Shown: in pieces, positions 7,538 to 61,800 of the stretch
Layout: every line of letters begins with the position of its first letter
Position numbering within the stretch: the first letter of the stretch is position 1
NCBI GenBank assembly: GCA_017499595.2
Contig: CM039000.1
Location: 2,232,001 to 2,296,000, forward strand
Reading direction: 5' to 3'
Origin: Psilocybe cubensis
Lineage: Eukaryota
DNA length: 64,000 bases
Made by a program: the position numbers and the translations under genes
The notes under the pieces: generated by a model
What the model was told of the DNA's origin: nothing
The model's database searches: none
The model's input: only the letters and a program-made list of their open reading frames with translations

Positions 7538-10431
7538 TTAAGATTCTGTTTGCTGCTGCTGGTTCGATGTGAATGAGCATCCAGTCAAGTGCCAAATTTG
7601 CAGAGAATGATTCACCAGCAATGCAGGTTTGATTATCCAAACTTTCTTCTCTTTGCACTTTTCTCCCACTTCCCGAACTTTCGCTTCAATAGCAGTCTTC
7701 TTCACTTTGTGCTCTTTGAGGTCCAAATAAATGGATTCCACAAGAGCTGTGATACTTGAAGCTTGTATTTGGGTGAATTTTGCCATAAGTAATGGCATAT
7801 ATACTTCCGGAAAAGTAAACTTCGTTGTAGGTTGCACCTTTTTGGCGACCAGAGGGGCGATAGTGGGTGTATTTGTCGACAAATCTGTACCTGAGTTCCC
7901 TATCGAGGTATTTGTTATTGACGTCAATCTGGGAGGAAGAGCTGGAATAGCAAATGCTGATTCAGTGGGGACAGCATTATTGATTGCATTTCGCGAGCGA
8001 TAGTCTTCAATGCATGTGGACACGAAGGTAAATGGATCGATAGATAGAGGCGTATCTAGTGTCCATGTTGAGAAGTATATGCACAGATGAAGGTAAAGTA
8101 ACTGACCATTAAAAAGTTGAATGGCATACGGTCTGAACGGTTCATAATCGCATTGACCGATAACTGTCTCCAAAACAGGTCCCTTCGCAAAAGGGACAAG
8201 AGGCACAACCACTTTCCGCCTTTTACCGATTTTTCTCTCTCCCTCATCAGCCTTTCTTTTCGATGGTGCGGACGTAGGGAAATCAAGTATGGGTGGAGGA
8301 GAGGAATCATGAAGTAGGGCCAAGTTTGGATCTTCATCATCGTCTACAAGCCAACTATCCAGGTCAGAATCCTGTTCATCTCCGTCTACATCTTCTTCGT
8401 CTCCGTCGTCAACCACATCTTCTCCGACTGGTTCCTCTTCCCACTCCTCTCCGCTGTCGTACGCGTAATCGAAAACCAAAGTATCTTTGGCAAACGGTGT
8501 CCGTGGTCCAATGATACGTGAACTACGGGTCCAGGTTCCAAAGTAACCGGGACGAGCGTCAGTGTGGAAACAAAATGCTTTTGCAGGTAGTAGTTCGCGG
8601 TCATTAAGTTTTGCCAGTAACGACCTGACCAGATCGTCGTTGCCACTGACTTCAGCCTCAGACAATTCCGCCATGAGATCCCGCACAGTCACAGGATTGT
8701 ATACCCGAAACCCAGCCTTTAAGGCATCAAACCGCCGATGCAGCACGCGCGTAGGCGTAGCACCAGGCGGTAGGGAGGCCAGTATACTATTTAGATGCTC
8801 TGACGAAAATTCTTCAGGTCATCGTAACATTAAGCCGACTAAGATTCCCACCTTGATTTGACGCCCCTTCCAGGTTGGTCTCTGTGGAAGACGAGCCTTG
8901 TTCCTCATCTTTCATGTCTTCATCGCTGTCTATAACAATCACTTCTTGTCCAGTAGGAAGGGCCGCTTTCCTTTTACGTCTCTTCTCATCCAAGAACCAA
9001 TTAGCCGGCGCCATGACCTTGTCCTTCTGCAGTACAAAAGGTTTGAAAACCTTCTCGAAATCGGACTGTATCCTCGAAGGGCCAGCAACAGCACTTTCAT
9101 ATTGAGATTTTGTTACTCGCGATGGTGACTTCGGTTTGACAAAAAACTTCGCCATAATAGACTGAGACTTAGAGTGCGCATCCTTTTCTTTCTTCTCCTT
9201 CTCAGCTTTAGCTGCTTTCTTCTCCAGTTTCTCTTTTTCCTATACCGTCGTTTAGCTTGATAATGAACTATGTAGATTGTAGATCTGACCTTTGCAATCT
9301 TTTCGGGGTCCTGGACCTTTTCTTTCTTAGGTCTGGGTTGCTTAGTGGTGGGCTTCATGCCGAGACATGGTAAACGATCTGAAGAACTGTTAAGAGGAAA
9401 ACGTACCGTTTCGCTTTCAGGCTCCTCCTCCCTTTTCTTGCCCTGCTTTTTGGAAGATTGTGGTGTGATTTTGGTGACATCCAATTTACCATCTACCGTC
9501 GAGATGCTGGAATCTTTTGCCTGAACTTTGCCTGCACCCTTGGGGTCGATGATTGCGTCGCGTTCTTTCTGTGAGTAAGTTTCAAAAATAGCTTTGAGTT
9601 CTTCTTTAGCCTATATAGCTGTCAAAATTGTTTGCATATCCACAATGCAACGACATACTTGGATGCGCTCTGCCTGTCGCAACTCGGCTTTCCCTATGCT
9701 GTTCTTAGGCAACCAGCTAATGTGGTCAGGCTTCACCTCCCATCTCCATACACAAATGGCGGCAGGTGGTTTGACTCCCAAAGGTACGTCAATCCCGTAG
9801 TTATTACGAGTCATTATCTCTTGAATGGCACATTCAATGAGATGAACAGGAAGAACAGCAGATGTGGCGGGCGCGACAGCGTCGTGTGCAGCTGGTAAGA
9901 GCTCTTGATGTACATATTTTGCAAGTGCATTCAGGGTTTTGTCACTAAGGGTCATGTGAGATGGGATTGGATTGGTGCCACATCGTTAGGAGCACGGACC
10001 TTTCATGTGCTAATTTCGCGATTAGAGGTTTGAATTCCTCCGGGAAAACAGAAAAGGATTCTTTGGCATTAATTTTATCCTCCAGCATGGATCGAAATTT
10101 GACTATATCTGAAACGAATAGAATAAACATCGCGGCCATACACCGGCCGGAATGGACATACCTTGTAGGGTCTCCGATTGCTTCTCGAAAGAGACAGGTT
10201 TCTGTCTGAAAATTACCTTTCCATTCTTTAATTCAGCAATTGGTTGTTTGTCCTGTTTCTCTGCAGGGGTATGACGCGTTCAGAACATCGGTACGACCAT
10301 TGGTAGGCGCGCTCACTCACTCTCAGTCGAAGGCGAAGGTTGTTTGTTAGCTAGATGACACGCATATTAGAGTTCTGTGACGCGCAATTCATTGTGATAA
10401 CATTACCTTTGGGCGTTTCGGGGCCCGACAT
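7538..10431 (-). CDS. RLF2: Chromatin assembly factor 1 large subunit (Cac1/Rlf2/CHAF1A)
   Basis: KER-rich stretch, PIP-like MAKFF, FHTDARPGYFGTW and FDYAYDSGEEWEEE motifs, acidic ED region, C-terminal winged helix. ATG at 10431 (MSGPETPK). Confidence 0.9.
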
Positions 10432-13851: not shown

Positions 13852-14499
13852 TCCGAGCTTGGCCTCTGAAATTTCCTTCATTTTCATGAGGACCATGGAG
13901 GAAATTTCTTGAGGGCTGAAGGTCTTGTCCTCATTGAGGTAGTTAACCTTGATGAGGGGGGAGCCCTCCTTTTCGACGACCTCAAAAGGCCAGTGCGACA
14001 TATCCTGGACAGTACAAGCATAATAAACATAGGTTCCGACATGCGCGCTCCAAACAAATACCCACCTTCTTGACATCAGGATCGCTAAAAAAGAAAGAAA
14101 GCTTCAGTAAAAAAAAAAAACAAAAAAGAATTACGGGATCGACCCACTCGAATCGGCGACCAATCAGGCGCTTAGCGTCGAAGACGGTGTTGCGGGGGTT
14201 CATGGCGGCCTGATTTTTGGCAGCATCACCAATGAGACGCTCCTCAGCAGAGAAGGCGACGTAAGAAGGTGTCGTTCGGTTACCCTCTGGATAGAGAAAA
14301 ATGTTGGGGAAGATATTGAGGTAAAAAAAGAATATACGAACGGTCATTGGCGATGATTTCGACACGGTCGTTTTGCCAGACACCAACACAACTGCGAGAA
14401 AAAATAAACACAGGGAAATGTGGGCGGTGATTGAGTAACGTACGAGTAGGTGGTACCGAGATCAATGCCAATGGCACCGTCAAACAAATCTTCGGCCAT
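12208..14499 (-). CDS. SSB1: Ribosome-associated Hsp70 (Ssb type)
   Basis: [49 protein letters not shown]-terminus [12 protein letters not shown] lacks EEVD, as in Ssb proteins. Confidence 0.93.
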
Positions 14500-28987: not shown

Positions 28988-29416
28988 TTCCTTGCGGGTG
29001 TTTTTTTATTTTCTTCCTTGTTTTTCTCTTTTCTTTTTTCGTTCTGTAGTCTTACATTTTATGCATTATTCCTCTTGTTTTCTTCTTCTGCTCACCTGCA
29101 TTTGCTTACTAGTCGTCTTCATCGTCGCTGTCCATCATCTCATTATTTTGTTCATGCCTCTTGGATCTGTTCTGCATAGCTCTCTTGTACCATCTTTCGT
29201 CATGCATATCACGACTTGATACCACGCGCACATTCTGGCGTCTTAATAAATAATACCTATTCTGCACATCCAAAATCAATGCATTGTTGCCGGTGTGGGC
29301 TAGCTTCCTTGTCGCGTTCGCGTTCGTGACTGTGACCCGAGTTACAAGACGTGAAATCTCCGCATCGTCTCGGAATGTCTCAACCAAGGACTCTAACTCT
29401 TACAGTCACCACCATC

Positions 29417-31287
29417 ATGTCGGGCAGCTTTCCATGGGTCAGATTCACAGGTTTCTCGCTAGCTCGTGCGTCCTGATGCCTTCCATATTATCTCTGCTAA
29501 TATTGCCTCGTTCTTTTCTTGAATTCTCTTCCTGAACCCTGTCTTCCGAAATTCTGAACCACACAACCCATTCGCCTTCTTTCGACTCGTTGCTGATATA
29601 TATTGCGCATACATTTACCAATTGTCGCTTCCTTTCCTCTCTTGGCGTGTCGGCTTTTCGCTCGTTCGGCGTGGCGATGGCTTCGTGAATGCCTGACAAT
29701 ATGGCCCTTTCAACTCTTACCACCACTGGTGCGGCTTTTGGCTTTCCGTCAATTGCCTTCTTTTGCGCTTCGCCACGGCTTCCGGGCTGTGTATGTGCTT
29801 GGTTCACTGAAACGATAAATGACGATCTCGATATCGTTAACCCTCTACTGGTGGCTGAATGGGTGTGGTGTGATGTAATCTGTCCATGGGGTGCCGTGTT
29901 GCGGTCTCGTGGACACACGACGCGACCTCGGCGTATCCACTTCCAATGCTTGCTACCAATCCCGGGGGAAATACCGACGCTATTACGACGACTCTAATAT
30001 CTTTGTTCGTTCCATATCGACTTTTACTTCCTTCGGCATCGTATGTAGTGATGGGTGTAGGTTATGGACTTATGAAAGGTTCGTCATTCTCGGACTAGAT
30101 TCATATACACTATCGCTAGTTCGTCGAAGAACTTGGACTAGTAGAGCAACCATGAAGCCATTGGAACTGTTCTGATGACGCTTCATTTTCGCTTTATGCT
30201 CTATCTTGCACTCTTTGTCTCTTGCTTTGCTCAACACTTCTTTTTTAATCTCCTGCTAACTCGCTATGCCATTCAGCCACAGTCCCTACAGAAGAACAAC
30301 TCTATAACGTGAGTTTTACCAATTCATTCAATCTTCTCGTTCATTTCTCTGTGTCTTGCTTATTTATTCGAATATTGTACCTCAATTGGGTAGTTGGCGC
30401 ATGCCTTCTCTTATCTTGATCTCTGTATGGATTGTTGCTTTTTCAGTGCGCGGTGGGATCCTTCCGTATACGCATTCTTCGGTGTATGTGGCGTTGTACA
30501 CCGGAAAGAAAAAATGACGATCTCTCCACATGCCTAGCGCTGCGGATTCCCTGCCCTGCGTTCTTAGGGTTGCTCTGTAAGCCATAGGACGGTGGGCAGA
30601 GGGGTGTCTTCTTTTCTATTGGGGAGTCGTCATCATGCTTCTCCCGGATGCCGCGAACTGGCTATGCTTTCATCTTACACCCAATTCCGGACTTTCAAAG
30701 TTGGCTTCATGTCACGCTCTATTTGACTTCTTCATATGCGCCTCGCCTTGAAGAACAAGCTTCTGTTGTATTTTTATTCTGCTTTTTAAATAACTTGCTT
30801 ACATCCACTCCTTTGCATCATCGGACCTACATTGGACTCTTTTTTCTGACCTATCTTCTTTGACTTTTTTTTTCATCGCCTGATATTTTGGGCGTTTGTG
30901 GAAATATGCAGGAAATGGCCCCCGATCTGAGGCGTAAAGTAGACGCTAATCGTGCCGCCCGCCTTGCCCGAGAGGCCGAAATGAAGAGACAGGTGGATGC
31001 CCAAGTGAGTGTTGGTATCTCTTTTAAGGTTATCGCTCCGCCCAAGGAGATGCTATCGATAGCATTCAAAGTTTCCACGTTTTGTGTCTTTCTTCTTCTT
31101 TTGCAGTGTCAATCCTTTTTGAGGATGTTGGAATAAGAACGGAGATTTTTCGTTCCATTTATGTCTTTCTTAAAATATATCGCATTCTTCTACTAATCCC
31201 AAGCTCTGCAACTTGTAGGTTGCAGGTGTAAACAACCAAGAGGCGGCGAAACCTATATGGGCGGATCCTCCTTCTGTCAAAAAATAA
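29417..31287 (+). CDS. CBP4: Cytochrome b / complex III assembly factor Cbp4 (5 exons, 90 aa)
   Basis: Exons 29417-29465, 30049-30078, 30277-30308, 30912-31004 and 31219-31287 splice in frame with GT-AG ends to MSGSFPWVRFTGFSLALMGVGYGLMKATVPTEEQLYNEMAPDLRRKVDANRAARLAREAEMKRQVDAQVAGVNNQEAAKPIWADPPSVKK*. N-terminal TM, (T)PTEEQL...PDLR and PIW are Cbp4-family hallmarks. Confidence 0.85.
29555..30035 (+). ncRNA. Candidate structured intronic RNA in CBP4 intron 1 (class unknown)
   Basis: Long-range stem 29558-29576/29853-29869, hairpin 29893-29932, a motif shared with intron 3, and 18S-antisense segments. Boundaries are a guess. Confidence 0.4.
30384..30690 (+). ncRNA. Candidate structured intronic RNA in CBP4 intron 3 (class unknown)
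   Basis: Closing stem AATTGGGT 30384-30391 / ACCCAATT 30679-30686; hairpin CGGTGTA...TACACCG; helix ATGACGA(T)CTCTCCA from 30514 with TGGGGAGTCGTCAT 30620-30633; nested hairpin CTGCCC...GGGCAG. Confidence 0.45.
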
Positions 31288-33956
31288 CTGCATGCCTGCC
31301 GCACGCCACTGGTCTGCAGAGATCTTTGCGATTCTCTTTTGCGTAAAGCTACTCTTCTCGTTGTATGCCATTCGGGGACTGACCCAGAAAGACCATAGAT
31401 TGTCGCAAGTCCATTATCCCAAAAGTCTTTCTTATAGTTGTTCAACACCCCCCCTCATTTATGTACGAATATCAATTCTAATTTTTTTTATCTTGTTTTC
31501 CCATCATTCATTACTGTGACACTCGGGCCTAACTCTAGGCATGCTAAAATTACAGCAGGATATCAACCGTCGCTGTCGTCCATCGTACGAATGTTCCTAC
31601 TTTGCATCGTCAGTGGCCCGACGCGAGTGGATCATGAATGGGTCACGGAGAGATTGATACATATGGTTGCCACACACACGTAGATGCTAATGTCCGAAGT
31701 TGGATATAACAAGGCGCGCAGGCAAACAGACAGACAGGTTGAACGAATTTCCATCTACGATTCACGCGTGGTTTCCCAAGCGACTCTCGTTCGCGTTGTC
31801 GACTCCCATCTCACACGCACTTACGCGGCTCCGGAGTTGCCACTACAGCGTCCGCCCTGTTTGACAGTATCAGAACGCCGGTTGAAATTCTGCCGGCTTG
31901 CAGCCTGTGGGTGTTCGATGTGGAGTTGCTGCTTCGTCTAGCGCGTTGTTTGCCTCAAGGCCAACCTTAGTACAGGAGTCAATCTAAAGAGTCACACTAA
32001 GGGTTATAAAATTTGGCTGTGCGTTGGTTTATGGGGTTTTCTTGTGGGTTCTTAGTCTTGAGTCTATTTAAGACTCAATCAATGCATTCAGCATCACAGA
32101 ACCGTTGGAAATCGCGAGCGATGTCCATATCTCGTCAAGTTACATACTACTTTACCGGCCAACCATTGATCCTTGTTTCTCCGTTTGTTTTAGCGTACTT
32201 TGGTACTCTGTTGCTCAGGAGTCAGAAGGCAATGATGACTTGCAATGCTGAATCGCGCACCTACTATACTTACTTACGAATCGCAGCCCACTTGTTTGAC
32301 TTGCCTCCTTCTGTCGACTTGGGGCATTGCAGGGAGACTAATGTATTGAAAAGCAAAGTTAACAAGTACGCATTGTCAATAATAATTACCAAGTAGTCCC
32401 TCTGTCTGTATTGCACATAAATGGGGTATAAGAAGTACATGGCTCGGTGTCCGCTGCAAGGGTATCCTTGGATTCAATTGTTGCTGTTCTGCATCATTAT
32501 CTGGATTTCTGGAAATTTGGCGGCCGCTGTGTGTGGTAGTACCCGTAGCCTTCTCGACTTGTTACTTTTAGGGTTTTGTCCAGTGCCATAGCAGCACTGT
32601 AATCAGTAATTTGAGAAAACCTTTGTCACAGTATTTCCATTCAATGGTTATATATTTGATAAAAGGCATATATGTATAGAAGAATAATAACATTGGATGG
32701 TGCAACTTCAAGTTCCTGCTACCATGGGCATTCAAGCGTCCAAAGTCAAACGACTGCGCCATGGCATCTCTGAACCTCTGGTAAAGCGAATATAAGGCAT
32801 AGTCCGCTTTTTTGAAATTTGAGTTTAAGCATTATGTACGCCAGCCGTGGAAATGGTTCAAGGATGATCGAACTAGCAGCTTAGCCGCGCCGCGGAGTGA
32901 GGAATTGGGAGACGTCTCAGCTGTCAGTTCACACTGTCGCCTTGCTTTGTCGTCATATCGCCCAAATGCTAGTTCTTTTCCACGGCTAGTTTTATTCAGA
33001 AAGGTGCGCTGATAGCTGATTGACTTTGCCTCGGAAGTAGCGTTCCGTAAAGACGCTACAATGCGTGGACAGGTAAGCGCATGCACCCACGCGTACCGCT
33101 ATCTTAATGCTAACTTACCTACTCCGGCCAAACTTCAGCTACGACTATGAATGCAAATCAAAAGTTGTAGAGACATTGGCAGACGTTAATGCAAGAGTTG
33201 CACTAAGCTAATCCATAGCCACTATTCGCTAGCGGTGACATCAAAACTGCCACAGCGGCGTATGACAGCGTATGACTAAGATCATCGCCCGCGAGCGGTT
33301 GCTGGGAGCAGTTATATTTAGAACAATTGCCAAGTTGTTGCTATTCATGGCGTAATCCGGCGGCAAGTCGACTCTCAGGCTGGCGCCCGGTATATTGTTT
33401 TTGATTTACCCAAGTTCATATTCAACTTGGGAGATAAGTATTTATACTGTTTCTCTGGCCCAGGCAATATTAACCTGCTCATATGTCACTTATTGGAGTA
33501 CGACCATCGTAATTTAAGTTCAAGTGAGATAGTAGTCGTGGCTCATGAAGGTCGTCTAAGGTCGTAACGTTTTGCCAAAAACGTGCCTGCAAATGGTAGC
33601 AAAGGAGCGACATCATAAAATGCAGTGAACTGGGGTCGAACGATAGGAATGCTGAAAAGAATGATGCCAGGTCGATAATACAGTAGATGGAATAGAATGC
33701 AGCTCATTTCAAGCACATATGCACGCAATGATAGATGTGACTGCGTCCGACTTCATCTCGAGAGTAAAGTCACGCACACAACTCAATGGTAGTTAGTGAC
33801 ATATGAAGTGTGGGGACGCGCACTGTAGATAGTGCAGTGGAGCTTATTGGGTACAGTAATGCATAGAATAAGAGTGAAAGCTTCCACAGATAACAAAATT
33901 AAAATGAATAGAAGAAAATCCGCAACATCGTCTCACCTCACCAGGCTCACCTCGCC

Positions 33957-40937: not shown

Positions 40938-41045
40938 TGCCCCGTGGCTTAGTTGGTTACGGCGTCCGACTGTTAGACCACGTGGTCGTGAATGTCACGT
41001 GATGTTGTAATCGGAAGATCGAGAGTTCGAGTCTCTCCGGGGCAG
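40938..41045 (+). tRNA. tRNA-Asn(GTT) with 34-nt intron (40976-41009)
   Basis: Acceptor TGCCCCG/CGGGGCA plus discriminator G; D arm GCTT-AGTTGGTTA-CGGC; anticodon arm TCCGA-CT-GTT-A[intron]A-TCGGA; T arm GAGAG-TTCGAGT-CTCTC; T-run terminator downstream. Confidence 0.93.
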
Positions 41046-46709: not shown

Positions 46710-49700
46710 CTATTTGTAGGAAAGTCGACCCCCGAACCTCTTCGCAGTGACATTATCCATTTCATCTTGCACTCCATATAAAGCATCCCACCAAGCTTCC
46801 CCAACAGTGTCTCTCTGGCTACAAGCAAGGTCGTCCTCATCTAGATACTCAGAAGTGGGAAAGAATCGTCGGAGCAAAACCATCCACCACTTCATCACTG
46901 CCACTGCCCGCTCAACACCTACGTCCGTCGCTTTCGAACGGTCGACAGATTGCACCAAAAATTTTGACAAGAACTCAACGTCCTTGTTACGAGGTGCCCA
47001 ATGCCTGTATGCCATAACCCACTTTTCCACAACAGCCTGAATATCATCTGTCTCCGTAAAGTACAATTTTTCCCCTTTATTGGGCCCTTGTTGGCGGAGA
47101 AAGGGTGGCGGAGGATGATTCGCCTTCGGTTTGGGAGCACGATAGGGTACAAAATCCGGAGGCAGTTCGTGCTTGCGGGGCTTCAAAATCTTCTTCTTTG
47201 GGGGAGGTTCCGGAATGGCGCCTTTTTGCTTGATTAGGCGTGCCCTCACAAGTTGCTCGCGCTGCACCTTCAAGGGCAACATGAAAAAGACATCAGGGTC
47301 AAGGTTCAGATCCCTCAAGGCCACATTTGTGATTCTGACACCAGTCGGCTTCTTCTTTTCCTGAAGTTTCTTTGCCCACGTGTATATGGAACTCTTCTGA
47401 GGCGAAACACTGGCACCAGTGCGAGGTGCGAGCTGCTGCGCGATTCGCTTGTAGTTTGACCCTCTTCCTTCTGGTTTTTGAGGGAAAACGGATGGAGTAA
47501 CAGACCTTCGTTTGGTTACCTGAACTTGTTGAGGAGCAAGACTTTTCATAGGGTCACCAATAGGACCTGCAGAAGTGAAAGGGGAGGCTGAACGGCGCTT
47601 GTACTCGGTCTCGAGTTCCTCCCGGACATCCCTAGGAAGAGCTTCAAACACAGACATATCAACTTGAGAAAAAGATGGCAAGTCAAAATCAGCATGTGTG
47701 TGTGTCGTTGGGTTCGCTAGAGCAAAACCAGCGTCGCTGCTCCTTTCCGGAGTTTGCTTATTATACCCAGCGGTATTGGAGGCATCTGTTGAACTTGAAG
47801 TTTTACTTTTAAAGGGAAGTAATGCTTGCCCTTGCGGTACCATTATGGCAGCCGTACAGGATTCAAGCTTCTGTACTTGTATCCCAATGCCCCTTAATTC
47901 TTTTGGGTCGAAATGAAATGATTTCAACAACTTGCAGGCGTGATTCCCAATGATTTCTGCATCACTCGTTGCCTTTCCTCCGGGATCAATGAGAGGCATT
48001 TGTTTGTTGAAGAGATCGCATGCGCCATGCCCTAGAAACTACGCACGAAACGGTTGCTCAGAAAAGTTTGGAATGAAAATTTAGAAAGCGACAAACTTTT
48101 GGTGGCTCGACTGGGGCTGTCGGATCACGTTTCATAATCTTCAAAGTTATCGATCGGCCCACCATGTTAATTGCATCCAATCTTTTTTTTACTTCAGTTG
48201 CCATTTGACGAATAAATGATTCAGCCTGTTCATTGTTCTCGAAACGAATGCCATACTGCACAACCAAATAGTCAACATTCACGACTACGGAGCAGAGTAA
48301 TGATACAATTACTTACGTTTATCTCGCATGATACTGATTTCCTAGGTTTATCGGATTCCAACTTCTTGTCATCAACACCACGGATAGCGTTGTATAGCGT
48401 TTCGCCTGTAGCCTTTCCAAGGGCCTCTATCAGAACGCCTTTGCTTTTCTTCGCCAGTTCTCCGAGAGTGATTACTCCAAGCTTTTCTTGTGCTTTCCGT
48501 TTGGTTGACCAACCAAATCCATGGAGATCGGAAATTTGTAATGGAGCCATTATTTCTGGGATATTTTCAGGTAACAAATGATAAGAACCTGCTGGTTTAG
48601 CGCGTCGTGTAGCAAGCCGAGCCAGTAGTATGTTGTGTGATATACCGATGCTGACTGGCGATGGATTGAATTTACGTATGATTTCGTCTGAGGACGTAAA
48701 ACTCACTTTCGCATTTTGTCGCGTAGTGCACCTGAGCACGAATTATTTCTGCAAAGTCTTTTGCTGGATTGTGTGCGCCACTTTGTACCCGTAATTGGTT
48801 GACGGCAGTAGTTACATCAATAAGCGCTTCATCGACGGAGACAGCTTGAAGGTCATCGGCGTGTGCCATTAAGACTGTGTAGAACTTGAGAGAATATTCC
48901 TTATAGCTGGAGGACGTTAGTCAAATGTTAGTGCGGAGTAGATTCCATGGAACACATACCGATCGAATTCATAAGGTATAGTTATGATATCAGGGCATAA
49001 TTGACGAGCTTGCTGTAAGCTAGTAGAGGAATTTAAAATGCTATAGAAAATCAAGAAATCAGGGGCATACCTCATACCGTTCTTGATACCAAACCCCCTG
49101 GCTTCATAACTGGCACTAGCAATTTCGCTAGTGCTGGAAGCCCCGCCCTGACTACCTTGCGAGTGACACACTACAACGGGTTTCCCTTTCAATTCCGGAC
49201 GGGAAACCAAACCAGCAGACACGAAGAAACAGTCGAAATCGCAATGCATGATAACTCGGTCCTCATCGCCTGTAGCTCTTTCTTTACCTTTCCACTTTTT
49301 TGGAGACCTCATGACGAATTCAGATCCTTTCATACTGAGGCCACCAGAGAATCCTTCGTGTTGCTCAGAAGCTATCTTTCCAACACGTTCCGATGACGAG
49401 CCAGATTCAGCGCGTTCTTGTGCTTCTTGAACAAGATTCTTCAACTCAGACTTCCAGGTAGATAAGTGATGGAGACGCGAGTTTTTGTAATAGCCATCAA
49501 TAAAGTCTGTAGATACCGAGGTATGAGCTTTTCGCCATTCAGGATTGGCCATTGCCCGTTTCGCGTTTGGGTTAGACTCGTCAGCAGCATAGCTGGGTAA
49601 CCGTGGTTGATCTCCTTTGTTGCATGGATCGCTACCAGGTATGGAATCATGGGCTGAATGCTGTTCCTCGGCATTCAATTCCGCGGATACTGGATGTTTG

Positions 49701-50552
49701 AACGCCAGTGGTGTAGTGTTGCTTAGCGGATCAACCGGCGGGATCGTTGATGGTGCAGATTTGGTGGCTTGAAGAAGGCTTTCTTGATTGCTCTTGGCCC
49801 CTTGAGTAGGTTCAATGCGCTCCTGATGCACATATTTAAAATCTTTCCATGACAAAAGTTTCCCGTTCTTAATGCTTTCAGTAAGCCATTCAGGACGAAC
49901 AACTTTCATATGCTTAAACTCTCGGATTTTCGCAGGAGTGAGGGAGCATGTGATGATATGGGTGCTGCAAAAATCAACTTAGACCAAATAAATGCACTGA
50001 GAAAGAGAACTCCTCACACAACGGATTTTTTTGTAAGATAGGCCTGAAAAACACCACCATGCTGAACTATCATCTGTCGCAAGTGTTGCACAGATGGACG
50101 GGTCCATCCATTGACCTAGAGTTTGGTATTGAATAAATTTCATGAACAATCATAAATTAACTCACATATATCGACAGACCCTTGAATATCCCAGATTCAC
50201 GGGACTGCGCCAGATCACTGTTCTGTATTTGAAGTTTGGCCCTCTTCCTTCGCATATACTCTCCAAAATCTCCAAAATGAGCTGGTCCGTAGACCTCATC
50301 TTCAGACGGGATTTGTACCCCATCCTTTTCTTCTGGAGATTGAAAATCGTCACGACGTCGCTTTGTAGAGGGTTGGGTTGGGGGAAGGGTGTCACAAGTT
50401 TGAGATGGTACTAAAGACTGATCTCTTAGAGGACTGCATATGGGCACATCTCCAGGGAGTACAGTGGTATTCAGAGCTTCCAAAAATTGAGAGTCGTCGT
50501 CATAGTAGTCTGAAGAATTGGTCTGGGACGCTATGGGCACCGCAGACTCCAT
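46710..50552 (-). CDS. REV1: Y-family translesion deoxycytidyl transferase Rev1
   Basis: FGDFGEYMRRKRAKLQ, BRCT domain, YYKNSRLHHLSTWK, MHCDFDCFF, SASYEAR, VSVDEA, RKSVSCEIN, UBM-like LPRDVREEL, Rev1 C-terminal domain. Confidence 0.95.
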
Positions 50553-52271: not shown

Positions 52272-55200
52272 ATGAGTGCCGACGACCTGATTAAAGAGTC
52301 GCTGCTGCCGAGGCGCTATCAAGAAGAAATATTCTCAAGAGCACAACAAGGTTCGATTAGCAAACTTTGATAGGTTTAAACAATCTTGACATTTACGGTA
52401 GGGAATGTTATTGCGGCGATGGATACTGGCTCTGGTAAAACCCTCGTCAGTTTACTCCTCATCAAATGGATTTCTTCGCAGGAAAAATCCATTGGTAAAC
52501 TTATAGCCTTTCTGGTCCCGAAGGTCGCGCTCGTGGAACAGCAATACGCGTTCATCCTTAATAACTCGTCCCTAAGAGTCGCAAAATTCCATGGAGCACT
52601 AGACTTAGATTTAAGTGATAGAATCGGGTGGAAGGAACGTCTCGAAGGCTGTGACGTGGTTGTAATGACTGGTACCTGTCCTCTTTTTGCAATTTACGCA
52701 AGTCTTATTTTTTTGGGTAGCCCAGGTATTCCTCAATATCTTGACCCATTCACTTTGGGCTCTAGATAAGGTATCGTTGATGATTTTTGATGAATGTCAC
52801 CATGCTCGAAAGAATCATCCATATAATGGCGTTCTACGCGAATATTTTCATAGTCCTACTCATCTTCGCCCGAAGATCTTTGGAATGACGGCTTCTCCTA
52901 TCTGGAATGTAAAGGATCCACGAGGATCTCTAGCTAGTCTGGAAAAAAATTTGGACGCGAAAGTCACTGCAGTCCGCGATCACGTTCAAGAACTCGTTGC
53001 TCATTCTCCCAAAGCCACGGAAGTAAGGATACTTGGAATATTTCTCGCATGTACTGACTTTCATCAAAGTTGGTTAGAGTTTACTCCCGTCCTCCTGCAG
53101 AATATGACTTCCCTTCACCCACCTTATTCCAGTGCCTCAAAGTTATTGATATCCAGCTCTGGAATCAGTTGGACATCCCTTGGGCAAATATAGAAAACCG
53201 CTATCTTGTCACACTGAATGACCTGGGACCATATTGTGCTTCTTTGTTTCTCTATCAAGAAATTCATTACCATGCTTGTAGAGTGATTGTCGAGAACAAG
53301 CAATCGATCGTGGCAAAACTTGATGATGTGATGGCAATGGAGGGAATTCTACCTGTTCCTCCTTCATGCTCGACGCCTTTTCCAGATGACTTCTCCTTAC
53401 TTGCTGATATCCTTTATGAATACACGGATATATTTCCAACTGGGACTAGCGGTCTGCCACTCTCAACGCATGTGCCATTGGCTTGGTGCACACCAAAAGT
53501 GAAGCTACTGGTCGACATCCTGGTACATTACTGCGCCAATATGCCAACGTTTCAATGCATTATCTTTGTTGAACAACGGCAAGTGGCTTCTTGCCTATCG
53601 AAAATCCTTCCGTCTATTCCGGAACTTTATGGGAAAATTCAGTGTGCCTTTCTCACTGGGCAAGGGACAAATAGCGATGGAATCTCAAAGCAAACAGATC
53701 GCACTCATGGAGACCCTGTGAAACGTTTTAGGGACCGCCAAATTAATATTCGTGAGCCTTATATCCATTTAAAAAATATCTTCGCCTATAATTCACTGTC
53801 CGTGGATCTCTTTTCTTCTAGTCGTTGCGACATCAGTTGCTGAGGAAGGGTTAGATTTTAAGGTAATTGTTGTTTTGAAACATAAAGAGTATTATCATTT
53901 ATGCACATTCAGGAATGTGATCTTGTTGTCCGGTTTGATCCTCTTCAACATATGGTTGGATATGTTCAGTCCCGAGGCCGAGCGAGAAAGGATGGGTCAA
54001 CATATGTTGTGATGATCCAAGAGAACGACACAGCCCAGCTCGAAAAGTATCATGCTCTAAAACAGAAAGAGCCTGAAGTCAATCGCGTCTACCAAACTCG
54101 TCATATGGATATTGATGATGATGAATCTGGCAGCGACGATGAAACGGACCCTGTCGATATGATGGCACGTGAGAGATATGTTGTACCATCCACAGGAGCT
54201 GTACTCAACTACGACAACTCCCTGAACCTCCTCAATTATCTTTGTTCCCTCATTCCTTGTGACGCATTCACCACCGCTCATGTTCCTAAGTACGGAGGTG
54301 ACTTCCAGGCTACAGTCCAGCTTCCTCGAGCTTTACCTCTCTCACCTGAGGACCTTTTCTTTTCTGGCCCAATCAGGCGGTCCAAAAGGGAAGCTCGACG
54401 AGCTGTCGCCTTCAAGGCTGTAAAACGGTTAAAAGAACTCGATGTCTTTGATGAATACCTCCTTCCCATGGCGAAACACTCGGAAGATGGAGAATCGATA
54501 GGAAAAACCCACCGTCCCCAGAAAACTAAGCGTCCTGAAATACCCGTGATTATGAATGTGTTGATTCGCGACCCATGGTGTATTGGAAATAAATTATGGA
54601 TTCATCCTATTGTCATCGGTGAACGGCTTGTCGCAGGACTGGTAACTGGTACTCCACTGCATCCGGAAGAAATAACCATTGCTGGGCAACCGGTGAAAAC
54701 ACTCCCAGCAAAACTTCTCACTTTTGAAAAGGATGATGAATACGACCAAAGAGCAGTTATGCACGAATTCACCAAATTAGGAATTTGGTATACCATCACT
54801 TCAAGACCCTTAACTTCTTCTCTCAGCCTTTACCTCGTGCCGGTCACAGCTGCACTATTGCCCGACTTCCATGCAATGGAGCTACTCTTGTCGAACCCTC
54901 ATGGCATTAGCGACTGGAGTCAAGTATCGGAAGAAGATTACGAAAAGTTAGTTGTCATCTCCGTCAATCACTGGGGGAGTATCCATCTGCTCCGAAGGAT
55001 TCGTCATGATTTGTCTCCCATGTCCGTGCCTACACCCGGTTCTCGAGAAGCTGCGGGCGCAACCTATTATGAATACTGGATGGCAAAATGGGCAAGAAAA
55101 AAACGTCCGGCTCTCGTTCCATGTGACGGTCCGCTCTTAGAGGCTCTACGTCGTCCACGTTCAAATATGGGGGCGTATTCCATGGATCATACTTCGGCCA

Positions 55201-56876
55201 ATACCGTCATGGTCTCTGTGCCGGATGGTCGTTTATTGCCACTGAGGAAATGTAACTGGTTGCCAATTTCTAGCTCGATTCTTGACGCCTTCGACGTACT
55301 TCCTGTCTTATGTCGCCGCATGACAGATTGTTATAGAGCACAATCAGCACGATTTGAATTGGGATTACCAGCTATAACAACTAATCTAATTATCGAGGCT
55401 TTCACAATTCCGTCGGCCACGATGCCGTTTAACAATCAACGAATGGAAACCTTAGGCGACGCTGTCTTGCAACTGTGCACTACTGTCCACCTCCTGAATA
55501 AATATCCTAACCGACACGAAGGCCAACTGTCTAATTTGCGACAAAGATATGTCCAAAATCAATTTCTTTTACGCAGAGCACTGGACCTTGCGTTCGGACG
55601 CTTTGTAAATTCAGAAATTCCGAGTATTTTCAAATATAGATATGTGCTGCAATCTCCGCTTTACACAGACAGTATAATTCCTCAAAGATACTACAACAGT
55701 GCATATCCGCGACGTAGTTTGCAAGATTGCATGGAAGCAATTTTAGGGGCCAGCTTTCTTGCGGGCAGCATTCCACTTTCTTTGCAGACAGGAACCGCTT
55801 TAGGTCTTGAGTTCGGAGGATCACTTCCATGGTTCATGCGCTATAGTCAAAACATTGAACCAACGACTATTGCTCCTCTATTTTCTAGCTTGGAGAAAGA
55901 TCTCGGTTATAAATTTCGCTATAATCATCTTTTACTGGAGAGCCTCAGCCATCCCTCGTGCACTAACTCGAACGTTCCTTCATACCAGCGTCTAGAATTT
56001 TTAGGAGACGGTGCGTAAGAACGGTTATTATTCTTGCCCCTTCTGATTGTCTCTCAGCCATCCTCGATTTGGTGGTCATTTATTACCTATTTCGCAAATT
56101 TCCTGATGCGACTTCTCATCAGCTAGCTTTGCCGAGGACAAAGGCTATTTGTTCTCCCAGCCTGGCTTATCTAGCTGTTCGCAAATTGGCACTACATAAA
56201 GTGATGCTGAGCAACAGTATCAACTTGACCACAGCCATTGACTTTTATTCACCGCTGTTGGAAAACCTTTCGGGAAAAGAAATCGTCAAAAATGGGTGGA
56301 AATATGATCCTCCTAAAGCCCTTAGTGATGTCTTTGAGAGCGTCATTGGAGCGGTGCTGGTGGATTCTGGGTACGACTATGAAAAGACAGCTAGCGTTGT
56401 AGAGCATGTCATGTCAGATGTTTTGGAAGCCCTTTCTCCAGCTGTAGACAAAGATCCTGTTAGTGAACTCTTGGAGTGGACTGCGGGTGAAGGGTGCAGA
56501 ATGGTTTCATTTGAGTAAGTCCCATGTGTAATCTGTATATAACGACGAGATGTTGATAGTGTCTGCCAGAAAAAAGAATAAAACCTATGATATGGTGGAG
56601 CAGGAGGGGATTGCAGTCACAGTACATGGGACTATGATAGTCGGACCGATTGTCTCGGCAAGCTTGACGGTTGCAAAGTTTGCCGCTGCCGAAAGAGCTC
56701 TGACTGTTCTCAAAGATCCCATGTCAGAGAATTCGCTTCTCTGTCTCTGTGATTGTGCATTCACAATGAAAGTGATGCTGCCTCCTATTGCGAATTTACA
56801 ACAATGCACAGAGAATAATTTCCCGCAGGACAATGCATCGGATGAAGAAGACGAAGCGATGGAAGTCCAAACTTAA
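52272..56876 (+). CDS. Dicer-like protein
   Basis: PRRYQ, DTGSGKT, DECHH, GMTASP, AEEGLD and QSRGRAR helicase motifs; Dicer dimerization domain; RNase IIIa RMETLGD...DCMEA; RNase IIIb RLEFLGD...DVFES; C-terminal dsRBD-like region with CxC. Confidence 0.95.
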
Positions 56877-58843: not shown

Positions 58844-61800
58844 ATGGCCTCGGATGGATGGTGTGCACGTGACATAATAGCACCCACTTTCTGGCCTTTA
58901 ACTTCTTGCTTTTCTGTTTCCTCCACCATCAGTATTGTATTCTCCATATTCGTACCGCCCCAATATTCAAGCGGTTCTTCTTGTTTAATCTGCATGGGAG
59001 ACTCAAGCGCTTCAGATGCTGGGGCGCATGTGTCCTACGACGCGCTTGCCTCGCTTCTTGGAGTCAAGGGTCCTCTTCGCCTGGTGCCTCAAGGCTCAAC
59101 GCCAAAAGCACACGTCGTAATCAAACGAGACTACATTAGAGAGAAATCAGACTCAGGTGAATCCTCTACGAGTATAGCGCGCTTCAGTTTTATTGCAGGG
59201 AAGAAATTCGCCATCAACAAGGGACAGCCACTACTGTTTGCGGTGGCCGCGCCAACAGATCAAGATGGAAAGACTCTGCTATGCGACGACAATACCTTCC
59301 TTCTAGAAGCGGATGTTGCGAGCGTTTCTGATGACAATGGCGAAGAAGACATTGGGAATATTTTATCCAAAAAGGAGCAAAAGAAAGAGCAGGGCAATGT
59401 AGGTGGTCTTCCGCCGAAAATGCGAAAGAGTTACTCGAGGAAGACGTCATATGCGAGTTATATCGAAAGTCAGCTTCAACGCATTCGTTTATAATTATTA
59501 CCGTCTCTTCTTATTCATCACATTTGTTTCAGACGAACCGCCATCTTCTATTGGATTTCTTGGATACCCATTGGGCGCGCCTACTCCGCGCGTCTACACC
59601 TCCGCCTCAGTACAGACCGAAACCCGTTCTCCCCCATCCCCTTCACCTGCATTCGGAACCGCACCTCTCGAAACCATACGTAGTCCTTGTATTCCACTTT
59701 CCATCATTGACATTGTCGAGCAGTCGCCTGTCCAACTACCCTCACCTGTATCTGCCGATCATGCTCGTGAGCCGACCTCAGAATCTTTGACCCAAATTGA
59801 AGGCGAAGAAATGGATGATGTACGTTGCAATTTTGAAGTTAAGAACGGAGACCTAATTGAAATTATAGTTCTCGCGCGCAGAACGCAGCCTTTCGCCCAT
59901 GGACTTAAGTAGCGCGAGTTGTTCTCCAGCTAATTCCCCTCTCCCAAAACACGATCCTTTGCCGGATGAAACGACTCCAAACCGCTCCGAAAGAGAATTT
60001 CTTTCCTTTGAATCTCTTGCTAGAGATGTGTCTTCAGGGCCTCATGCACAAGATGAACCCATTCCTTGTCCTCCTGGTGAAGCCATACCTTCTGGTTCTT
60101 TGCTATGTAATACGGTCTCTCCTTTGTTGTCACCAATACACCCTCCATCCATTCTGTCCCCACCTCCTTTACCCTCTCCCTCTCCGGCAGCCTCTATCAT
60201 TACGTCAACCAACCCCTCGAGTAATATCTCATTCGACAACCTATCTGTGGAAACCATTCCCCCAACTACGGTCAGTGACAAATCTAGGTTAGAAAATGTA
60301 TCAATGCATATTCCGTCTGTGAACGTCATATTTTCCACAACACGTCTTCCTTCTGAGCAGCCTTCGTCGTCTCTGGAGAATGGTAGCATCCCTCCCTTTT
60401 TTCACAAGTTTTATACCACTAAGGATCAAATTATAGATTACAGAGGTCTTGAAGTACAAGATGAAACCAAAGTCCTTGACGAGGTACCTATCGATGAGAA
60501 GACTGTTCAAGAGACACAGAATGAGAGGACTGTCCACGCAATTCTCAAGGAATCCAGTTCGAATGTGTCAAATCCCGTCAACAAACAATCAGCTGAGATG
60601 AAGGCGGTTCCACAAGCTGCAATGTCCCAGGAGGAGGTTATTTCAGTACGTGGACCCATCAAGCTAACGCGACCGTTATATTGACCGAATTTCTCTATAG
60701 CATTCAAAGAAAACTCCACCTACAACCCCTAATGCTGTGGCTTCGAGTAGTAAGATGACCGAAGATTGGTCAACTGTTGACCGTGATTCTTTGACACGAA
60801 ACCCAGGCGTCCCTATCAATTTACGAGCCATGCGTTCTGCACATTCTCAAGAAAAAGCGCCAGATTTGCTACCTACGCCATTATCCTCAAGAGTTTCTGC
60901 TTTACCCATTCAACCCAGAAATTCCTCGCCTCCACCTGACCCGAAATCTCTGGCATATATTCCTTCTGGGTCTTCAACCAATCCTCTTGGAATTCGACCT
61001 TCCTCTGGGCGCATTCTTCCTATCACTTCGCAGAAATCGGTCCCCAAAGGCCCGCGATCTCTTGTAGGTCCCGCTCCACCAACGCAGCAGCCCAAAAAAC
61101 CGGTTGTGGTTGGTGCAAAATGGTCAGCAGCGAGAAGTTCTGGCTCCAGCTCAAATGCATTACATGGTAATGTCTCTACAGCAACTAACTCTTCCACGAT
61201 ACCAGCAACATCTACGACCTCGTCTCATACCACTCCGACCTCTTCATCGGTGAAAATAGGACTATCGCACATCATGCGTTATGCATCACCCTCACCGCCT
61301 CCTCCGCAGCCTGACCATCCACCTCCTACACCACCCGTACCTCCTCAAACTGGATTAGTGAAGTGGAAAAGGATATCGTGTGTTGACGAAAAACAAGCAA
61401 ACGTACCTTCATCCATACCTTTGGATCCCGAGTCAAGTAGTCAAGTGACACAAATCTCGAATGAAACCTTCCCTTCATTACCTTCAAGTTCTTCTCTAAA
61501 ACGGTCTCGCGATGTGTTTACTGAAGATAATTCTCAACTACCTGAAAATAGCAAAGGGCCAACTCCTAAGAAGGCCAGATCTACTTCTCCTCTACCCCTT
61601 CCCCTTCCACAGTCCCAACCCACTCCCACTTCTAATGACAATACATCACTGTTCAAAGTTCCGCCTGTCCTTTCTTCTCCAATCAAGACTGCGAACACAC
61701 CGCCAAAAGGTACATATCTTGTATTTCTTGTTACTTTTTGTTATGGCAGTGCTAATAATTATTACCAAAGTCCCACAACCCATGACTCACCCTTTACCAC

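Follow-up and report, generated by a model that had tools for sequence, protein, structure and literature searches.

A short bipartite motif shared by the two long introns of one Psilocybe cubensis gene, the first of which is free of AG

Long fungal introns often host small nucleolar RNAs (snoRNAs), and a sequence repeated inside such introns can be compared with these RNAs, with masked cryptic or decoy 5′ splice sites and nested introns, and with introns that splice from a distant branch point. For the last of these, long AG exclusion zones have been found to mark distant branch points in human genes, often with regulatory elements inside the zone (Gooding et al. 2006, PMC1431707). Here, we analyzed a stretch of 64,000 nucleotides (nt) from Psilocybe cubensis (GCA_017499595.2, contig CM039000.1, positions 2,232,001 to 2,296,000, hereafter the window, numbered from its first letter), in which a single gene carries a motif of about 42 nt in both of its long introns, once in each. 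The observation itself is real, and the two copies appear to be a short direct repeat that would go back to a common origin.

Each copy consists of a 9-nt block, GTGTATGTG, and a 13-nt block, AAATGACGATCTC, joined by a spacer. The original prediction, made from the sequence, had given two such sequences at 29789-29829 and 30482-30524, and both letters and coordinates were exact, on the + strand. The local alignment of the copies (34 of 43 columns identical) confirmed that the two blocks are identical, that they lie 19 and 21 nt apart and that the flanks are dissimilar. The proposal that the copies are paralogous also holds. All nine differing columns fall inside the middle 21 of the 43, a clustering that by our own calculation would arise by chance with a probability of ca. 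0.01 to 0.05 under uniform divergence. Outside this segment the two introns are not alike, with a permissive alignment score of 23 for the remainder (shuffle mean of 16, maximum of 24), and the 64-kilobase (kb) window held no further copies of the motif. Its interpretation as a conserved protein-coding sequence was rejected, the two blocks being in different frames between the copies.

A metagenome scan with the bipartite pattern gave 20 loci, close to the chance expectation that we estimated for 20 fixed bases. All of them were unrelated, as they lacked the A-rich linker and differed in GC content and context. Eight of the 20 were nearly identical to one another, came from several samples and represented one repeat-rich eukaryotic gene for a repeat protein; here the matching stretch covers the beginning of the gene's own short GTATGT intron and then a (TC)n run. 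Within the P. cubensis gene, TCGTCATT at 30081-30088 (positions +3 to +10 of the intron 2 donor) is complementary to AATGACGA of both motif copies. TCGTCAT is found at 29197, 30081, and 30627, and ATGACGA at 29819 and 30514.

The spliced form of the host gene was taken from contigs of two public sequencing runs that were found to carry RNA, and these contigs confirmed four GT..AG joints (Table 1), showing that the gene is expressed and correctly spliced. They place both motif copies inside real introns, as had been claimed. Read across the joints, the gene encodes a protein of 90 codons that resembles Cbp4 in its N-terminal half. The label CBP4 was confirmed by no tool; for exon 4 alone, the best family was DUF4748, with an expectation value (E) of only 0.21, and no usable hit came from the Atlas. 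The motif-bearing introns 1 and 3 are the two long introns of the gene and flank the pair of micro-exons 2 and 3. At ca. 600 nt they are exceptional here, where 51 to 56 nt is usual. RNA-contig depth was 6.1 to 13.1 over introns 1 and 3 and 45 to 184 over the exons, and the contigs of both introns ran on into the following exons for as many as 30 nt, so unspliced precursors are present in these data. Introns 2 and 4 had zero contig cover in both RNA runs, which we did not take as evidence. Intron 4 also carries a perfect 16-nt palindrome (31050-31065).

The first long intron has a second peculiarity that gives a stronger and directly testable signal than the motif. Intron 1 (583 nt) has no AG in 581 nt, where 21.3 were expected (minimum of 9 in 20000 shuffles; Poisson P of 5.6e-10), and the resulting AG-free run of 586 nt is the longest run in the window without any one of the 16 dinucleotides. 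The next longest are 300 nt for GG and 280 nt for AA; the second-longest stretch without AG, at 152 nt, is the 3′ end of intron 3. The complementary dinucleotide CT is not depleted in intron 1 (58 versus 54.3 expected), so that the constraint is specific to one strand and acts at the RNA level. Thus, the absence of AG from intron 1 shows strand-specific, RNA-level selection on the choice of the 3′ splice site over more than 0.5 kb, and it bears on whether scanning for the first AG acts over such distances in filamentous fungi. By our arithmetic, the intron also holds seven CUGA where composition would give about two.

On the minus strand, nearly all of intron 1 is covered by a stop-free frame of 182 codons (29445-29993), a length reached by 0.1% of 3000 dinucleotide-preserving shuffles. 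This frame was rejected as a gene: it matched no Pfam family and no homologue among 70 candidates (near lengths only), its Atlas recognition was low, and it has no internal start until the last 13 codons. It is probably not a gene, and its length is unexplained.

For the motif itself, we tentatively favor a duplicated module in the pre-mRNA, a pseudo-intron or decoy donor that would act in cis. The first block is an exact 5′ splice-site consensus (GU/GUAUGU), and the UGAC core of the second lies 29 nt (copy 1) or 31 nt (copy 2) downstream of the donor-like G, which is the layout of the 51- to 56-nt introns of this genome. In the short introns of the window, donors follow GTRNGT and branch sites follow CTRAY, and two of these introns, recognized by eye, measure ca. 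51 nt (53864-53913) and ca. 53 nt (60648-60700), with TTGAC or CTAAC. Within intron 3, the motif is the sole place with the donor pattern GT[AG][ACT]GT, and intron 1 has this pattern only in the motif and at 30041, beside the acceptor. Copy 2 opens an intron-like unit (30484-30537) whose AG follows UGAC by 20 nt and whose 54 nt match real introns of 51, 53, and 56 nt. The unit of copy 1 lacks an acceptor, as intron 1 has no internal AG.

Whole-intron folding placed the first block in a predicted 9-base-pair (bp) helix in both introns, with a different partner in each (Table 1); the predicted pairing probability of its GUGUAUGUG portion was 0.98 in intron 1 and 0.74 in intron 3, while the introns as a whole averaged 0.54 and 0.56. 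U1 small nuclear ribonucleoprotein could bind GUAUGU, which in the predicted fold would be locked, and so masked, in this helix. If it has any action, the module would thus work in cis on the slow removal of the long introns around micro-exons 2 and 3.

Several points weigh against the decoy-donor module. The AUGAC of the second block makes a poor branch site, since it lacks the C of the CTRAY consensus found in every verified intron of the gene, and the 13-nt identity far exceeds a branch core and is unexplained. By our estimate, composition predicts 0.9 internal donor-like hexamers in 600 nt, close to the one that is found; likewise, in a fold with 55% of its bases paired, a 9-nt block that is paired throughout is no rarity. 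At the scale of the window, the likeness between the copies is at background (BLAST E of 3.5), with five unrelated pairs scoring as high as the motif pair or higher. Finally, the RNA contigs gave no instance of use of an internal donor or of removal of 30484-30537, which is weak evidence because contigs drop rare forms. A recursive splice site was rejected, as no AG precedes GTATGT in either copy. Taken alone, the motif is of modest interest, as a module that may act in cis, resembles splice signals and is common to two unusual introns, and its main value lies in the handle that it offers on how a fungus with introns of ca. 50 nt removes two 600-nt introns around micro-exons of 30 nt.

TABLE 1 Coordinates of the motif copies, the host gene, and related features in the window
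Feature	Position	Strand	Basis
Motif copy 1, in intron 1: GTGTATGTG, 19-nt spacer, AAATGACGATCTC	29789..29829	+	Pattern match and alignment
Motif copy 2, in intron 3: GTGTATGTG, 21-nt spacer, AAATGACGATCTC	30482..30524	+	Pattern match and alignment
Intron-like unit in intron 3, 54 nt: GTATGT, TGAC at 30515, AG at 30536-37 (UAG end)	30484..30537	+	Sequence reading
Predicted partner of GUGUAUGUG, copy 1	29606..29614	+	9/9 paired in minimum free energy fold, probability 0.98
Predicted partner of GUGUAUGUG, copy 2, local hairpin	30495..30503	+	9/11 paired, probability 0.78
AG-free stretch over intron 1	29462-30046	+	Dinucleotide scan of window
Branch-site-like CTAATAT, 31 nt from donor, at upstream end of AG-free zone	29497..29503	+	Sequence reading
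Second CTAATAT, 51 nt before acceptor, conventional branch-site candidate	29994..30000	+	Sequence reading
Exon 1, coding part, ATG to donor	29417..29465	+	Joint 29465>30049, RNA contigs
Intron 1, 583 nt, GTGCGT..AG	29466..30048	+	RNA-contig joint, both runs
Micro-exon 2, 30 nt	30049..30078	+	RNA contigs
Intron 2, 198 nt, CTAAC at 30256	30079..30276	+	RNA contigs
Micro-exon 3, 32 nt	30277..30308	+	RNA contigs
Intron 3, 603 nt, GTGAGT..AG, CTGAC at 30846, CTGAT at 30880	30309..30911	+	RNA contigs
Exon 4, 93 nt	30912..31004	+	RNA contigs
Intron 4, 214 nt	31005-31218	+	Joint 31004>31219, RNA contigs
Exon 5, stop codon TAA at 31285-31287	31219..31342	+	Joint 31004>31219; loose ends at 31342, both runs
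Putative intron of 3′ untranslated region, 56 nt, CTGAC 36 nt from donor	31343-31398	+	Same loose ends in both RNA runs

Among the alternatives, a neutral relic survives best, although we regard it as unlikely. A stretch of about 43 nt would have been copied between the introns by local duplication, template switch, or gene conversion and would then have drifted to 79% identity, its blocks being functionless. This would fit with a common segment that is so short and lies between unrelated flanks, and with the lack of a common structure or a family match. Other short direct repeats are also present nearby, since five direct pairs scoring at least 28 within 2 kb were counted in the real window (some of low complexity) versus 0 or 1 in six shuffles. 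However, neutral drift does not predict that all differences cluster in the spacer, and an unmasked perfect donor within an intron should be selected against. Contigs of a related organism matched the host gene at exons only, at a likeness of at least 80%, a limit at which a conserved 42-nt island would probably go unseen. With introns less than 80% alike in this relative, a neutral copy that old should be more eroded.

A fortuitous likeness of two pyrimidine-rich introns is a more doubtful explanation. How far the likeness stands above chance varies with the reference chosen. The pattern as written matched twice in the window, with 0 matches expected from 100 shuffles, but it had been defined post hoc. 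When the whole window was compared with itself, the motif pair ranked 6th of 14986 pairs, and each of six block-shuffled windows had two to four pairs of equal or higher score, which, together with the BLAST value given above, speaks for chance. On the other hand, the comparison of intron 1 with intron 3 scored 37, when 200 shuffles had a mean of 21.8 (standard deviation of 2.2) and a maximum of 29. Pairs scoring at least 33 within 2 kb numbered two in the real window and appeared in none of the six shuffles, and the copies agree in strand, block order, and near-equal spacing. Hence the rare part is the placement, less than 700 nt apart, on the same strand, and in two exceptional introns of one gene; this placement is unlikely to be accidental.

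The lack of AG suggests another role for the motif, to which we give a still lower probability. Intron 1 would be spliced from a donor-proximal branch point at 29497, followed by a search over ca. 550 nt to the first AG, and the motif would be a regulatory module of this process, serving the partner long intron as well and comparable to the regulatory elements in the AG exclusion zones of mammalian exons whose branch points are distant. A donor-proximal branch point would explain the purging of AG over the whole intron, which the conventional candidate near the acceptor would not.

That each long intron hosts a paralogous stable noncoding RNA (ncRNA), snoRNA-like or of a new class, with the motif as its conserved core, is very unlikely. 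In its favor are the length of these introns, their cover by RNA contigs, and one segment (30500-30645) with a folding z score of −2.48, equaled by only 1 of 200 shuffles. The original prediction had placed each copy within a folded domain that was closed by a long-range stem and contained a helix opened by TGACGA. In the whole-intron fold, the stem and the helix were recovered for intron 1 only. There, the closing stem 29558-29576/29853-29869 was predicted for 16 of 19 nt with a mean probability of 0.79, and the UGACGA/AUCGUU mini-hairpin of copy 1, with a 7-bp stem and a 6-nt loop, was predicted at 6 of 7 (probability of 0.81). In intron 3, both were absent from the whole-intron fold, the closing stem with 0 of 8 (0.28) and the UGACGA/UCGUCAU helix with 0 of 14 (0.10). 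The latter forms a 120-nt domain that is not robust and is lost when the whole intron is folded.

The domains fared no better as such. The chosen segments of ca. 320 nt had z scores of −2.34 and −2.16, with boundaries picked on the stems, whereas the whole introns 1 and 3, at −0.87 (with 25 of 120 shuffles scoring as well) and −1.22 (with 14 of 120 doing so), are no more structured than their shuffles, and the immediate surroundings of the motif gave −0.29, −0.22, and +0.65. The copies thus have a sequence in common and fold differently, which argues against the core of a structured ncRNA and would be compatible with an element read by its sequence, such as the repeated protein-binding RNA element that the original prediction gave as its other option. 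Compaction of the introns by structure was also rejected, the structural distances between splice signals being no shorter than in shuffles (in intron 1, branch candidates and acceptor were 33 apart, when shuffles averaged 34.1 and 58 of 120 were as short). As a separate observation, GTGGCTGAATGG of intron 1 (29851-29862) has a perfect 12-nt complementarity with 30269-30280, which covers the intron 2 acceptor and the start of exon 3; the same segment takes part in the predicted closing stem with 29558-29576.

The sequence features of snoRNAs were equally wanting. In a search of Rfam, no snoRNA family reached its gathering score, the sole match in the window was a transfer RNA (tRNA), and relaxing the search to E values up to 10 over the gene added only noise. 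The best snoRNA match, SNORD81, was weak (19.1 bits versus a gathering score of 50, E of 6.4), aligned only AUGACGAUCUC and skipped 51 model positions. The C box has the consensus RUGAUGA, from which AUGACGA is one letter off, with both GA steps kept and a C replacing the central U. A D box in register was lacking, as the sole two CUGA of intron 3, at 30846 and 30880, both lie over 320 nt beyond the motif on its downstream side, and the CTGA of intron 1 at 29855 has flanks that are not complementary and so form no terminal stem. No ACA follows a downstream hairpin in either copy, and the fit of the linker to ANANNA (H box) carries almost no information, since any A-rich linker would fit. In addition, the contigs of both introns continue into the downstream exon, as precursors do. 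The proposal of two intron-hosted snoRNA-like ncRNAs is therefore unsupported, with no Rfam family, no D box or ACA in register, and no common fold.

A DNA-level element, such as an intronic transcription factor site with the core ATGACGA/TCGTCAT, is the least probable of all, because the common segment, at 42 nt and with a strand orientation, is far longer than such a site, even though the five occurrences listed above lie within ca. 1.5 kb and the 64 kb hold 20.

As to the wider surroundings, neighboring genes encode Dicer (53058-56018), REV1 (46710-49978), and CAF-1 subunit A (7538-8818) domains. The tRNA gene (40938-41045; 49.9 bits in Rfam) has a length of 108 nt, which implies an intron in it. 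An imperfect palindrome of 41 nt (78%) is located at 13868-13908.

Among described systems, the box C/D and H/ACA snoRNAs share with the motif an intronic site on the sense strand, the C-box-like AUGACGA and the A-rich linker fitting ANANNA. However, the motif matches no Rfam family, neither a D box nor a terminal stem stands in register, and an ACA tail, a guide pocket, and a fold common to both copies are lacking. The introner-like elements of fungi (PMC3609843 and PMC4457414) are similar in being longer-than-usual introns with common sequence. Here, by contrast, only 42 nt in mid-intron are common, the ends are not alike, and the folds are not unusually stable. The likeness does not extend to whole introns, since 43 columns align, the rest is at the level of shuffles, and the 64 kb hold no further copies. 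The comparison with the structure-dependent choice of 3′ splice sites in yeast (Gahura et al. 2011, PMC3239191) is suggested by the predicted stem 29558-29576/29853-29869, which could shorten the path to the acceptor; yet the structural distance from branch candidates to acceptor is no shorter here than in shuffles.

In other systems, one intron-like unit lies within another intron. This is the case for stwintrons (PMC9024468 and PMC5639578). The nested unit 30484-30537 differs in that it interrupts neither the donor, nor the branch site, nor the acceptor of intron 3, being 175 nt from its donor and 374 nt from its acceptor, and intron 1, without an internal AG, cannot hold an internal intron. 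Masked cryptic or decoy 5′ splice sites and nested introns are similar in that the motif has an exact intronic donor consensus that is predicted to be paired and intron 3 has a complete intron-like unit of 54 nt. The differences are that the RNA contigs gave no sign of use here, that the 13-nt block has no known counterpart, and that the likeness is one of prediction.

For intron 1, the counterpart is the AG exclusion zone of human genes. The similarities to the cases in PMC1431707 are the lack of AG before the acceptor, a branch-site-like CTAATAT at the zone's upstream end, and the regulatory elements inside human zones, to which the motif in intron 1 can be compared. Among the differences, the host is a fungus with short introns, the distant branch point is putative, and a second, conventional CTAATAT stands 51 nt before the acceptor. 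Moreover, the zone of 586 nt spans the whole intron, while the largest that we noted in that paper are 381 and 438 nt. If the distant branch point were true, this would be the longest AG exclusion zone known to us, in a fungus that otherwise uses introns of 50 nt.

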